13,993 nucleotides of DNA, from IMG/VR virus record IMGVR_UViG_2654587792_000016; one strand, written 5' to 3'. The notes beneath the pieces are model-generated. The model was not told where the DNA came from. It was given only the letters and a program-made list of their open reading frames with translations, and made no database searches. Positions 542 through 9,439 of this stretch are shown one piece after another. The first letter of the stretch is position 1, and every line of letters starts with the position of its first letter. Source of the DNA: a virus. Lineage: Duplodnaviria; Heunggongvirae; Uroviricota; Caudoviricetes. A program made the translations under genes and the position numbers.

Positions 542-584
542 ATAATAACCTCCTGATGATACCTGTTCATTGGGAGGTTATTAT
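542..584 (+). promoter_or_regulatory. 12-bp perfect inverted repeat (ATAATAACCTCC-N19-GGAGGTTATTAT) spanning a TATAAT hexamer, the Shine-Dalgarno and the start codon of the downstream CDS
   Basis: Read directly: 542-553 ataataacctcc is the exact reverse complement of 573-584 ggaggttattat, with a 19-nt spacer. The right arm holds GGAGG (573-577) and the A and T of the ATG at 583-585; the left arm contains an anti-SD-like CCTCC and overlaps a perfect TATAAT at 541-546. It is either an RNA hairpin sequestering the ribosome-binding site or a DNA operator for a dimeric protein. Confidence 0.5.
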
Positions 585-1200
585 GGATAAAAATGTAGAG
601 CATGTATTAGTTGATGCAATTGAAAATAAGCAATCTTTAACAGTCGTTTACTTAGGAGGGAGCCAGCCCGGAACATTAAGGAATATTTCTCCGATTAGTA
701 TAAATGGGGATAAGTTGCGGGCAAGATGCCATAGTTCTGGAGCAGTAAAGGTTTTCAATCTTGGGAAAATACAGTTACCCAGTAACTCCTGCGCGGTATC
801 TATGCACTATGGAGATTTAGAAGTTAAAGCTTATGAGACGATGCAGAGCGTAAATGACAACTTTCATGCCCTTTATCCTGAAGGACGATGGGGTGTTGAT
901 TTTAATGAGCATCGCTTTGCTTTATTTGATTTTTTTAAAAACGGGAAACGAAAAAAAACGGCATTTATGGCAATTGAGTTCAGGGAAAGAGATGAAGAGA
1001 AAATAATAACAGGTGTAACAATTGATATTGGTATATCTGGAACAGTGATTTCTGAGAAATCCCGAATCCCAAAAAGACGACCATGGGTAGTGGTTGGTCC
1101 CGAACACGGAGAATACAGTACTTATTCAACTTTGGACAAGGCTGCTACAGCGTTTTTTGAGAGACTTTCGTTGATAGCATCCGGCCTGGAAGATAATTGA
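583..1200 (+). CDS. Hypothetical protein, 205 aa, AT-rich cargo (moron) gene between Q and the lysis cassette; N-terminal third loosely WYL/SH3-like; function unknown
   Basis: ORF 556-1200 in the track; preferred start is ATG 583 because GGGAGG at 572-577 sits 5 nt upstream. Stop TGA 1198-1200. The region is visibly AT-rich compared with the flanking phage genes. Residues about 15-70 (SLTVVYLGG...TLRNISPISINGDKLRARCHSSGAVKVFNLGKIQL) have an alternating hydrophobic/basic pattern reminiscent of WYL-type beta-barrel domains; this is pattern recognition only. No HTH or catalytic motif recognised. Confidence 0.6.
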   Translation: MDKNVEHVLVDAIENKQSLTVVYLGGSQPGTLRNISPISINGDKLRARCHSSGAVKVFNLGKIQLPSNSCAVSMHYGDLEVKAYETMQSVNDNFHALYPEGRWGVDFNEHRFALFDFFKNGKRKKTAFMAIEFRERDEEKIITGVTIDIGISGTVISEKSRIPKRRPWVVVGPEHGEYSTYSTLDKAATAFFERLSLIASGLEDN

Positions 1201-1329
1201 TTTTATGTTTGGTATTCAGAGTTCGCCGTGCTTAAGAAAGTCAAGATTCTAAAAATACTGAATGAGCTACTTGTGTTATAACAAAAATGCTATTAGTGTG
1301 TTAAGAGTGGTTACTTCGCCACACAACTT

Positions 1330-1355
1330 AAACCCGCCACTGAGCGGGTTTTTTG
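1330..1355 (+). terminator. Rho-independent terminator after the cargo gene
   Basis: Stem acccgc (1332-1337) pairs with gcgggt (1344-1349), loop cactga, extendable by A-T pairs at 1330-1331/1350-1351, followed by a T run at 1349-1354. Confidence 0.6.
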
Positions 1356-1830: not shown

Positions 1831-2883
1831 ATGAAAAATACTGTAAAAATAAACAGTGTTGATTTAATCAACGCTGATTGCCTGCATTTTATTCAGTCCC
1901 TGCCTGATGATTCCATTGACCTGATTGTTACCGATCCGCCGTACTTCAAGGTGAAACCCAACGGTTGGGACAATCAGTGGAAAGGGGACGAAGATTACCT
2001 TAAGTGGCTGGACCACTGTCTGGCCCAGTTCTGGCGGGTGTTAAAACCTGCCGGAAGCCTTTATCTGTTCTGTGGGCATCGCCTGGCATCTGATATTGAG
2101 ATCATGATGCGTGAACGTTTCAACGTGCTTAACCATATCATCTGGGCGAAGCCGTCCGGACGTTGGAATGGGTGTAATAAAGAAAGTCTGCGCGCATATT
2201 TTCCTGCCACAGAGCGCGTTCTGTTTGCTGAACATTACCAGGGGCCATATCGCGGCAAAAGTGACGGCTATGCAGCAAAAGAAAGGGAACTCAAACAGCA
2301 CATAATGGCACCGCTGATATCGTATTTCAGGGATGCTCGTGCCGAACTGGGTATAACGGCAAAACAAATTGCCGAAGCCACAGGTAAGAAAAATATGGTT
2401 TCCCACTGGTTTGGTGCCAGTCAGTGGCAGTTGCCGAATGAGGCTGACTATCGGAAGTTACAGGCACTGTTTTCCCGTATAGCGGCAGAGAAGTTTCAGG
2501 AACAACAACTGGAACAACCACACCACCAGCTGGTGGCATCTTATGATTCACTGAATCGCAAATATTCTGAATTGCTGGATGAGTTTAAATCTCTCCGGCG
2601 CTATTTCTCCGTATCAGTCTCCGTGCCTTATACCGATGTCTGGACGCATAAACCCGTTCAGTTCTACCCGGGTAAACATCCGTGCGAGAAACCGGCGGAT
2701 ATGCTCCGGCAAATAATCAATGCCAGTAGTCGCCCTGGTGATATGGTTGCTGATTTCTTTATGGGATCCGGTTCCACAATAAAAGCAGCAATGGCGCTGG
2801 GGCGTCGGGCGTTAGGTGTTGAACTTGAGTCAGAGCGGTTTAATCAGACGGTGAAAGAGGTAAGTGAACTGGTGGGGAAATAA
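1831..2883 (+). CDS. DNA amino-methyltransferase (N6-adenine or N4-cytosine), beta-class, apparently orphan
   Basis: 350-aa ORF. Motif IV DPPY (LIVTDPPYF) is near the N-terminus and the SAM-binding motif I (FFMGSGST) near the C-terminus, the circular permutation typical of beta-class amino-MTases (CcrM/HinfI/PvuII-like). The roughly 250-aa region between them contains an HTH-like stretch (ITAKQIAEATGKKNMVSHWF). No restriction endonuclease ORF is adjacent. Confidence 0.85.
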   Translation: MKNTVKINSVDLINADCLHFIQSLPDDSIDLIVTDPPYFKVKPNGWDNQWKGDEDYLKWLDHCLAQFWRVLKPAGSLYLFCGHRLASDIEIMMRERFNVLNHIIWAKPSGRWNGCNKESLRAYFPATERVLFAEHYQGPYRGKSDGYAAKERELKQHIMAPLISYFRDARAELGITAKQIAEATGKKNMVSHWFGASQWQLPNEADYRKLQALFSRIAAEKFQEQQLEQPHHQLVASYDSLNRKYSELLDEFKSLRRYFSVSVSVPYTDVWTHKPVQFYPGKHPCEKPADMLRQIINASSRPGDMVADFFMGSGSTIKAAMALGRRALGVELESERFNQTVKEVSELVGK

Positions 2884-2959
2884 TTCTGGTGGCCACGTTG
2901 CGTGGCCTTTTTATTTCCAACACAGCACCCGCAAATATCGCGAGGTGAGAGATGACGAA

Positions 2960-3295
2960 ATGCCTCATAACCCAAATACCTGGCCGGACTGGCTGGAGTT
3001 GTTTCAGAGCTGGTGGCGTGGAGACACGCCGCTGGGTGCAGTGATTATGTCGATCGTTATGGCTGGTTTGCGCATCGCCTATTTTGGCGGTGGTGGTGGC
3101 TGGAAGCGAAAAACGCTCGAGATTTTGCTCTGTGGCGCTCTGACGCTGACCTTTGCATCCGCTCTTGAGTATGTCGGATGGCCTAAATCACTTTCTGTTG
3201 CCATTGGTGGCGGTGTGGGGCTGATCGGTGTCGATGCTATTCGTGGGGCTGCAATGCGAGTAATCGGTAACAAGTTTGGTGGCTCTAAGGAGTAA
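2960..3295 (+). CDS. S: Holin, lambda S-like class I (three predicted transmembrane segments)
   Basis: The track ORF 2864-3295 begins at a GTG inside the MTase 3' end; the preferred start is ATG 2960 with GAGGTGAGAG at 2942-2951. The hydrophobic segments and C-terminal VGLIGVDAIRGAAMRVIGNKFGGSKE align in pattern with lambda S ([20 protein letters not shown]). It lies immediately upstream of R. Confidence 0.8.
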   Translation: MPHNPNTWPDWLELFQSWWRGDTPLGAVIMSIVMAGLRIAYFGGGGGWKRKTLEILLCGALTLTFASALEYVGWPKSLSVAIGGGVGLIGVDAIRGAAMRVIGNKFGGSKE

Positions 3296-7722: not shown

Positions 7723-7931
7723 ATCAGAATGATATTGAAGCCATGATTCAGCGTTATACGGAAGCTGAAATGGCGGTGCTGGACGGAAAATCCGTCACTT
7801 TTAATGGTCAGCAGATGACCATGGAAAACTTATCTGAGATCCGGCAGGGGCGGCAGGAGTGGGAGCGCCGCCTTGCGGCTCTGATTACACGACGACGGGG
7901 GCATCCCGGGTACCGGTTGGCGAGGTTCTGA
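7719..7931 (+). CDS. Head-tail joining protein (lambda gpW-like)
   Basis: About 70 aa. ATG 7719 overlaps the terminase stop (ATGA), with GGAGG at 7708-7712. The C-terminal RRRGHPGYR resembles the lambda W C-terminus (RRRGPAGF); synteny A-W-B. Confidence 0.75.
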   Translation: MNQNDIEAMIQRYTEAEMAVLDGKSVTFNGQQMTMENLSEIRQGRQEWERRLAALITRRRGHPGYRLARF

Positions 7932-9439
7932 TGGCAATTCTTGATGATGTGATTGGCGTTTTTTCACCAGGATGGAAAGCGGCAAGGCTGCGTTCCCGTG
8001 CGGTGATCCAGGCTTATGAGGCCGTAAAAACGACGCGGACACACAAAGCCCGACGGGAGAACCGAACTGCCGACCAGTTAAGCCAGTACGGGGCCGTGTC
8101 GTTACGTGAGCAGGCCCGTTACCTTGATAACAACCACGATCTGGTCATTGGTGTATTTGACAAGCTGGAAGAACGGGTGGTGGGGAAAAACGGGATTATT
8201 GTCGAGCCACATCCGGTATTACGCAATGGGGCCATTGCCCGTGATCTGGCAGCGGAGATACGCACCCGATGGAGTGAATGGTCTGTCAGTCCGGAAGTCA
8301 CCGGGCAGTTTACCCGTCCGATGCTGGAACGTCTGATGCTGCGTACCTGGCTGCGCGATGGTGAGGTGTTTGCCCAGATGGTTTCCGGGCGCATAAACAG
8401 CCTGACGCCTTCTGCCGGTGTTCATTTCTGGCTGGAGGCGCTCGAGCCGGACTTTATTCCCATGACCAGTGATGAGAGCAACAGGCTGAATCAGGGCGTG
8501 TTTGTTGATGACTGGGGGCGTCCCGAAAAATATCTGGTGTATAAAAGCCGTCCCGTATCCGGACGGCAGATGGAAACCAAAGAAGTGGATGCAGAGCGAA
8601 TGCTGCATCTTAAATTTGTTCGCCGTCTGCACCAGATGCGCGGGACGTCTTTATTGTCCGGTGTGCTGATCCGCCTCAGCGCCCTGAAAGAGTATGAAGA
8701 TTCTGAGCTGACTGCAGCAAGGATCGCCGCTGCTCTGGGGATGTACATCCGGAAAGGCGACGGACAGAGCTATGAAACGGATGGTAATGACAGCAAGGAG
8801 AATGAACGCGAGCTTACCATTCAGCCAGGCATTATTTACGACGATCTGAAACCCGGCGAAGAAATCGGAATGGTGAAGTCGGATCGTCCCAATCCTAACC
8901 TGGAAACTTTTCGTAATGGTCAGTTGCGTGCCGTGGCGGCGGGCAGTCGTCTGAGTTTTTCCAGTACGGCACGCAACTATAACGGCACTTACAGCGCCCA
9001 GCGTCAGGAACTGGTTGAGTCTACTGATGGCTACCTGATCCTGCAGGACTGGTTTATTGGTGCCGTCACCCGTCCGATGTATCGTGCCTGGCTGAAACAG
9101 GCTGTGGCATCCGGTGTTATCAGGCTACCCCGCGATCTTGACCGTTCTTCACTGTATACCGCGGTGTATTTCGGACCAGTGATGCCGTGGATTGACCCTG
9201 TTAAGGAGGCTGAGGCCTGGAAAATCCAGATTCGTGGTGGAGCGGCGACAGAATCAGACTGGGTACGTGCTGGTGGTCGTAATCCGGATGATGTCAAACG
9301 TCGGCGCAAGGCCGAAATTGATGAAAACCGCAAGCTGGATCTGGTATTTGATACCGATCCGGCCAGTGATAAAGGAGGCAGCAGTGCCGCAACGAAACGA
9401 CAGGAGCCGCAGCACACCGACGACCAGTCCGAAGAATAA
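7931..9439 (+). CDS. Portal protein (lambda gpB family)
   Basis: 502 aa from ATG 7931, which overlaps the gpW stop (TGATG); GAGG at 7922-7925. The track ORF from 7859 is an upstream extension. Size and synteny fit, and SLREQARY resembles lambda B SLREYAGY. Confidence 0.85.
   Translation: MAILDDVIGVFSPGWKAARLRSRAVIQAYEAVKTTRTHKARRENRTADQLSQYGAVSLREQARYLDNNHDLVIGVFDKLEERVVGKNGIIVEPHPVLRNGAIARDLAAEIRTRWSEWSVSPEVTGQFTRPMLERLMLRTWLRDGEVFAQMVSGRINSLTPSAGVHFWLEALEPDFIPMTSDESNRLNQGVFVDDWGRPEKYLVYKSRPVSGRQMETKEVDAERMLHLKFVRRLHQMRGTSLLSGVLIRLSALKEYEDSELTAARIAAALGMYIRKGDGQSYETDGNDSKENERELTIQPGIIYDDLKPGEEIGMVKSDRPNPNLETFRNGQLRAVAAGSRLSFSSTARNYNGTYSAQRQELVESTDGYLILQDWFIGAVTRPMYRAWLKQAVASGVIRLPRDLDRSSLYTAVYFGPVMPWIDPVKEAEAWKIQIRGGAATESDWVRAGGRNPDDVKRRRKAEIDENRKLDLVFDTDPASDKGGSSAATKRQEPQHTDDQSEE

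Follow-up and report, generated by a model that had tools for sequence, protein, structure and literature searches.

The transposase genes of IS10 and IS50 are reportedly protected from outside transcription by what is known as fold-back inhibition. The 3' (distal) arm of an inverted repeat is said to lie over the SD sequence and the AUG codon, the resident promoter to fire between the two arms, and only transcripts that come from outside to carry the inhibitory arm; accessibility of the RBS is said to differ greatly between the two kinds of transcript. Long helices near a start codon or the end of a gene are also found in phage lambda, in the RNase III hairpins of the N leader and sib and in the mRNA switch of cIII. 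In these cases, the helix sets translation or decay according to which transcript carries it. Accessory genes of phages have reportedly been described as morons, and a classic moron has its own promoter and its own terminator.

A strong, consensus-like SD is locked in a stable stem in IS200 tnpA, where a stem-loop of the 5'UTR sequesters the SD and blocks 30S binding (PMC4513863). The IS200 stem lies within the gene's own 5'UTR and repression is permanent (PMC4513863); in IS200, an antisense sRNA and a terminator further upstream are present as well. The late control region of phage 21 has the layout pR'-QBE-SDPE-tR' (Shi et al. 2019, PMC6606751). In the phage 21 record OL657228, the Q stop codon is followed after 6 nt by the −35 hexamer TTGACA, a spacer that contains the QBE (two 8-mers), the −10 hexamer and the start, with the sigma-dependent pause element (SDPE) TAAGCTG at +2 and a distance of 49 nt from the start to the end of the terminator.

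Here, we describe a known type of control, a cis-acting and probably promoter-dependent hairpin that sequesters the SD, at a new place, in front of a WYL-fold cargo gene of a lambdoid prophage. The whole stretch of DNA that was analysed (IMGVR_UViG_2654587792_000016; 13,993 nt) is referred to as the window.

Results

The window is a lambdoid Escherichia coli prophage that is present, for example, in strain S88. It was contained over at least 80% of the query in 51 to 52 of 5426 complete genomes, and the full-length genome matches were all at least 99% identical among the matches listed. The antiterminator gene Q (136–507, + strand; the longest ORF is 31–507 and the RefSeq start corresponds to 136) belongs to the Q21 family. 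Its product, named 'antiterminator Q family protein' in RefSeq, matches Pfam PF06530 (E = 3e-47) and the structures of phage 21 Q (PDB 6P18/6JNX; E = 2.9e-9). A mosaic junction lies within Q at about position 295: in some 400 other E. coli genomes, the match is confined to the 5' part of the gene (84–96% identity), and the 3' half, including the recognition helix, co-travels only with the hairpin described below, the cargo gene and the 17-mer TTGTGTTATAACAAAAA. Q ends 32 nt upstream of the hairpin on the same strand. The cargo gene (583–1200, + strand) is followed by a 75-aa ORF and by genes for a DNA methylase, a holin, Rz and head proteins, and the neighbouring genes are all on the + strand.

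The cargo gene encodes a stand-alone WYL-fold protein of 205 aa that lacks an HTH. The protein is a member of phrog_8498, a family that has no assigned function; its Pfam WYL match is below the cutoff and RefSeq labels it as hypothetical or as 'WYL domain-containing'. Literature searches on the cargo protein, on the sequence of the conserved block and on fold-back inhibition yielded nothing usable. RefSeq places the start codon at 583. The in-frame ATG at 556 was rejected as the cargo start because a 1-nt insertion puts its equivalent out of frame in the second lineage of the hairpin. We note that an RNA beginning at A556 would open with AUG in a leaderless-like manner; in the window, this AUG is in frame with the cargo and would add 9 aa, and in the second lineage the equivalent AUG is out of frame.

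The genome, viral and metagenome collections that we searched yielded just two hairpin lineages. The second one (lineage 2; loci L004, L059–L063 and L066) has a cargo protein with 72% aa identity to that of the window. In the scans for further lineages, the genomes gave relatives of 30–52% identity in unrelated contexts and without the hairpin, the viral collection gave the same two lineages only, and the metagenomes gave only copies 99–100% identical to the window.

As first noted, the 12-mers ATAATAACCTCC (542–553) and GGAGGTTATTAT (573–584) are exact reverse complements. A repeat search showed that the inverted repeat is longer than this, with arms of 18 nt (542–559 and 567–584) that are 89% complementary. 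The perfect 12-bp repeat is the core of an RNA stem of 21 bp, formed by a left arm at 539–559 and a right arm at 567–587 (+ strand). The folding-energy check with RNAfold gave this stem a ΔG of −26.9 kcal/mol, with a 7-nt loop (560–566), four G·U pairs and zero mismatches. The hairpin had a z-score of −5.47, and none of 200 shuffles folded equally well. The anti-SD CCTCC is located at 549–553 in the left arm; the right arm contains the SD GGAGG (573–577) and the start codon AUG (583–585).

The inverted repeat is real and exceeds chance, in agreement with the original prediction. For perfect inverted repeats with arms of 12 bp or more and loops of 3–40 nt, we obtained 0.053 per dinucleotide-shuffled 14-kb window; when only the local 160 bp were shuffled, 0.18% of the shuffles contained such a repeat. 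Another perfect inverted repeat (8922–8934/8966–8978; 13 bp with a 31-nt spacer), within the large + strand ORF 7859–9439, is likewise unexpected by chance. A comparison with Rfam gave no family at the gathering score, only sub-threshold hits to plant miRNA hairpin models (20–23 bits against cutoffs of 65–135). We rejected the hairpin as an intrinsic terminator: the stem is followed by GGAUAAAAAUG, with no U-run, and the terminator scan did not list it on either strand.

To describe the accessibility of the ribosome site, we calculated the cost of unpairing positions 571–588, at 37 °C unless stated. It had been proposed that in + strand RNA the CCUCC pairs with the SD and buries the AUG, an arrangement suited to translational repression. 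The computed fold bears this out, and the opening costs lend the repression reading further support in silico. For RNAs with 5' ends at 136, 400 or 520, opening of the RBS was predicted to cost 17–19 kcal/mol; for 5' ends at 553–556, the predicted cost fell to 2.5–3.2 kcal/mol. The RBS of the cargo gene was the most occluded of the 12 gene starts in the window (17.8 versus 4.4–13.9 kcal/mol), and its opening cost falls between the 95th and 99th percentile of those at arbitrary positions. For lineage 2, we predicted costs of 10.3 kcal/mol with an upstream start and 6.2 kcal/mol with an internal start, and the modelled gain from an internal start is thus weaker there.

The helix has a polarity. 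Each of its non-Watson–Crick positions, four in the window and a further two in lineage 2, is a G·T on the + strand, and A·C does not occur. For this reason, the + strand RNA folds 7–8 kcal/mol better than its complement in both lineages (−26.9 versus −18.6 kcal/mol in the window; −17.7 versus −11.1 kcal/mol in lineage 2). With transition-type mismatches distributed randomly over the two strands, six out of six on one strand would have p ≈ 0.016, which is our own estimate for events that are not fully independent. The strand bias favours a role at the level of + strand RNA over a protein-binding DNA palindrome.

The perfect 12-mer is the minority allele. The allele 544T (TATTAT), in which the outer pair 544·582 is broken, occurs at 33 related loci, compared with 13 for 544A, the allele of the window. 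Two further alleles of the E. coli type were seen: 571 T>C (6 loci) converts a G·U pair to G-C, and 577 G>A (3 loci) breaks a pair and weakens the SD. Lineage 2 retains a stem of 12 + 3 bp over the SD, with an internal mismatch and with the AUG immediately outside the stem. Using an alignment of seven rows, we found 93.9% of the alignment cells paired, compared with 36–56% when the partners were slid. Thirteen of the 21 pairs were invariant, five varied one-sidedly via G·U, two were broken in some rows, and a single two-sided change (U-A to C-G) occurred, in L062/L063. At these two loci the cargo start (position 3001) is GTG, not ATG, and through this G the pairing with the left arm is re-established as C-G. 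Shuffle controls on the same alignment gave no significant covariation.

About half of the observed substitutions disrupt pairing (544 A>T; 577 G>A; 556·570 in lineage 2; 543·583 in L060/L004). At the nucleotide level, the stem-loops of the two lineages are 80% identical and the coding sequences 76%; the DNA immediately upstream is 46% identical. As judged by these comparisons, conservation of the stem-loop is hardly above the level of the CDS, and the structure persists across the lineages with thin support from covariation. At one locus (L040; IMGVR_UViG_2563366940_000006, 2191–3001), an insertion of about 0.77 kb is located at the base of the right arm, just after the loop. The insertion has the end sequence GGTGATGCTGCCAACTTACTGAT and a target duplication; it is presumably an IS1, to judge from its end. 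It parts the left arm and the −10 hexamer from the SD, making this locus a natural uncoupling mutant.

The left arm overlaps a perfect TATAAT (541–546, + strand), as had been pointed out, and we regard this hexamer as a putative −10 element with a predicted start at about 553–556, between the anti-SD and the SD. A PWM scan placed a weak −35-like hexamer, ATCAAA (519–524), 16 bp upstream of it. The candidate promoter ranked 172 of 139,620 positions, with three of six matches in the −35, and on sequence grounds appears mediocre; a first promoter scan of the window did not list it. The equivalent promoter of lineage 2 ranked about 16 and has a −35-like hexamer (TGAACA/ATGAAC) at the same distance from the −10, the spacing across the lineages being 16–17 bp. 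The −10 itself (window, TATAAT; major allele, TATTAT; lineage 2, TACAGT) keeps the pattern TAnnnT, and this conservation is confounded with the requirement to pair with UUAUUAU. If TATAAT does act as a promoter element, transcription is expected to start downstream of 553, and such a start would define a two-transcript switch rather than argue against a function of the repeat. A terminator scan of the interval between Q and the hairpin gave no terminator-like site.

Two other promoter-like matches overlap the hairpin. A + strand match, ATGATA-17-TATTAT (556–584; PWM rank 12), was dismissed because it would initiate transcription within the ORF and because lineage 2 does not retain its −10 (TATTTA there). 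On the minus strand, ATGAAC-17-TATTAT (−10 at 547–542; PWM rank 30) may simply follow from the symmetry or may be a paQ-like promoter.

The original prediction viewed control by the repeat as acting on top of Q antitermination. This is probably wrong, given that the element that covaries with the Q helix, a promoter, TAAGAG and a terminator are all located 3' of the cargo gene, at 1271–1355 (+ strand). The 17-mer TTGTGTTATAACAAAAA (1271–1287) would comprise the −35 (TTGTGT) and the candidate QBE of pR'. It is identical at 17 of 17 positions in the two lineages, which share the Q recognition helix (the recognition region of lineage 2, GISLNQVVIRLQKAEGF, is identical to that of the window), and its flanks are only 26% identical between them. 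The 17-mer was absent from phages with other Q C-termini, which have other sequences at that position. The candidate pR' −10, TAGTGT (1294–1299), lies 17 bp from TTGTGT (PWM rank 45 of 139,620), and four phage types retain xAnnnT here (TAGTGT, TAATCT, CAGTAT and TATGCT). TAAGAG (1303–1308) bears a resemblance to the SDPE of the phage 21 record and is conserved in all aligned phage types. The tR'-like intrinsic terminator (1331–1355; 8-bp stem and T-run, −12.0 kcal/mol) follows the predicted pR' start by about 50 nt, is conserved in cargo-less phages and would also end the cargo transcript. A simple terminator scan missed it, probably because the stem consumes part of the T-run.

Related phages with other Q C-termini share the block from TGTTAAGAGTGG onwards, including the terminator AAACCCGCC...GCGGGTTTTTT; their cargo slot holds nothing (1720a-02) or a reversed gene (PhiR40_1). 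We found no cargo-less phage that carries TTGTGTTATAACAAAAA, as all 51 pR'-like hits have the cargo or a remnant of it, and the placement of pR' therefore rests on co-variation and layout. On this basis it is likely that pR', the candidate QBE and tR' lie at 1271–1355. Since the cargo gene sits between Q and pR', it is probably not under Q antitermination from pR'. TATAAT (541–546) was rejected as the site of pR' in favour of 1271–1299, where the fully conserved 17-mer occurs in a phage-21-like layout. The region 508–587, at 80% conservation, has no adjacent terminator and no island of identity of the kind that marks a Q21 late promoter, and the hairpin (539–587) is outside the pR'-QBE-SDPE-tR' module.

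The layout is like that of phage 21 in its Q21-family Q and in the succession of −35, conserved spacer element, −10, TAAG motif and terminator about 50 nt on. It differs in that a cargo unit of 0.76 kb separates the module from Q, as opposed to 6 nt after the Q stop in phage 21, and in that the candidate QBE is a near-palindrome, whereas the phage 21 QBE consists of two TGAGCA direct repeats.

Some further observations concern this region. The best + strand σ70 match in the window, TTGTAC-17-TACAGT (1353–1381; fourth of 139,620 over both strands), is located directly 3' of the tR'-like terminator, and its TACAGT is conserved in 1720a-02 and PhiR40_1. On the minus strand, 1322–1458 gave an Rfam match to the enterobacterial sRNA STnc130 that stays below threshold (30 bits; gathering score, 55; E = 0.05) and overlaps the conserved block downstream of tR'. 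In a relative of lineage 2 (L105; IMGVR_UViG_2872174743_000006, reverse strand, ~2451–2470), the cargo is truncated: all except its last ~20 nt has been replaced by sequence ending in GATTCAGGGGGCCAGTCTA, which we take to be similar to an IS2 end. This relative retains TTGTGTTATAACAAAAA and the pR' block.

Discussion

Our best reading of the locus, which we hold tentatively and at somewhat below even chances, is an IS10-like fold-back inhibition in which an RNA from the cargo gene's own promoter is translated and read-through RNA is silent. In an RNA started upstream of about 539, positions 539–559 would pair with 567–587 and lock the SD and the AUG in the 21-bp helix, and ribosomes would be unable to initiate. 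During the lytic cycle, such RNA is expected to arise by read-through from Q, which closes the early operon. A σ70 −10 element in the left arm, in turn, would start an RNA at about 553–556 that is devoid of the inhibitory arm and has an open ribosome site. Under this scheme, the cargo would be translated on a transcript from its own promoter, made for instance in the lysogen and ending at the tR'-like terminator (1355), and would stay silent on read-through transcripts of the phage. The hairpin half of this model is likely. The promoter half, which we infer from the −10 and −35 hexamers, could be correct but falls a little short of an even chance, and it is weaker in lineage 2.

The comparison with IS10 and IS50 can be made point by point. 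Here, too, the 3' arm of an inverted repeat covers the SD and the AUG, and the predicted opening costs of the two transcripts differ by a wide margin (17–19 versus 2.5–3.2 kcal/mol). In place of the resident promoter between the arms, we have a −10 in the left arm with a weak −35 and an internal start that, unlike in the insertion elements, is a predicted one. Transcripts from outside would come from Q, 32 nt upstream, the scan having given no terminator in between. The gene concerned is an accessory gene of a lambdoid prophage and not a transposase gene, and the 'outside' transcription is that of the phage's own early operon.

The same hairpin and opening-cost data also fit with a constitutive damping of translation. 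If the cargo gene had no promoter of its own, it would be transcribed only together with Q, and the hairpin would hold translation to a very low level or make it depend on a helicase, a standby site or the rare opening of the stem. The weakness of the internal promoter in the window agrees with this, and permanent SD sequestration is known from IS200 tnpA (PMC4513863). However, a barrier of 17–19 kcal/mol would leave a conserved, intact ORF with a consensus SD almost untranslated, and it would be a coincidence that TAnnnT places the start exactly between the anti-SD and the SD in both lineages. We regard damping as unlikely. The helix might also be a substrate of RNase III, for which the lambda N leader and sib are precedents in lambdoid phages. 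Cleavage of the read-through RNA would either separate the Q and cargo mRNAs and destroy the RBS of the cargo gene or remove the inhibitory arm and turn translation on, and it could coexist with fold-back inhibition. In the window, there are indeed 21 uninterrupted pairs, about two helical turns. In lineage 2, however, only 12 + 3 pairs with an internal mismatch are left, and the major E. coli allele 544T interrupts the helix as well; what is conserved is pairing of the SD and not helix length, and a role of RNase III appears quite improbable.

The two remaining alternatives belong to the original prediction. In a DNA operator, a dimeric or tetrameric regulator would bind over the cargo promoter and start, and might also control a leftward paQ-like promoter. 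The perfect 12-bp half-sites, with centres 31 bp apart, were thought to suit a dimeric regulator; they overlap the −10 hexamer, and the minus-strand match ATGAAC-17-TATTAT could be read in the same way. On the other hand, mismatches that are all G·T on the + strand are relevant to RNA and not to DNA, the major allele and lineage 2 have lost part of the symmetry, and half-sites three turns apart are unusual. An HTH is missing from the cargo protein, and we found no candidate binder within the module. The repeat thus has neither the strand-independent symmetry nor the cognate DNA-binding protein of an operator, and the idea is disfavoured to the point of being very improbable. For an RNA thermometer acting at host temperature by opening of the RBS, the topology is right, with the SD and AUG in a stem facing CCUCC. 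The cost of opening fell from 22 kcal/mol at 25 °C to 17.8 at 37 °C and 16 at 42 °C, but was still about 15 kcal/mol at 45 °C, which rules against a thermometer. Known RNA thermometers are short, imperfect helices, and melting would be expected between about 30 and 42 °C, whereas the 21 pairs found here have no internal loops or bulges. This variant is hardly credible.

Against the other described systems, the locus resembles IS200 tnpA in that a strong consensus-like SD is locked in a stable stem, and departs from it in that we found neither an antisense sRNA nor an upstream terminator and in that fold-back inhibition would not be permanent. As with the N leader, sib and cIII of lambda, the effect of the helix would depend on which transcript carries it. 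Unlike those helices, it is not conserved in length in lineage 2, and a role of RNase III or of alternative conformers is only putative here. Like a moron (PMC3594210), the cargo is an accessory gene between conserved phage functions, and in other relatives the slot is empty or holds a different gene. It differs from classic morons in that it appears to borrow tR' and adds a translational insulator.

A further, more speculative and rather doubtful step is to view the hairpin and the promoter buried in it as a gate between lysogeny and lysis, by which a stand-alone WYL sensor is made only from the quiescent prophage and is off in the phage's own lytic cycle. The WYL cargo is possibly an anti-phage or DNA-damage-sensing accessory gene. 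If the gate is real, it would be a phage example of the 'fold-back insulation' of transposons.

If fold-back inhibition with two transcripts operates at this locus, a prophage can house an accessory gene in its early operon without expressing it during lytic growth, and translation of a moron would be tied to the promoter that made the RNA. The probable placement of pR', QBE and tR' 3' of the cargo corrects the expectation that genes adjacent to Q are controlled by Q, an expectation that matters for toxin-type cargo in related Stx phages. The uncharacterised stand-alone WYL family, with about 950 sequence clusters, would then be regulated prophage cargo, worth testing for a function in defence or DNA-damage sensing.
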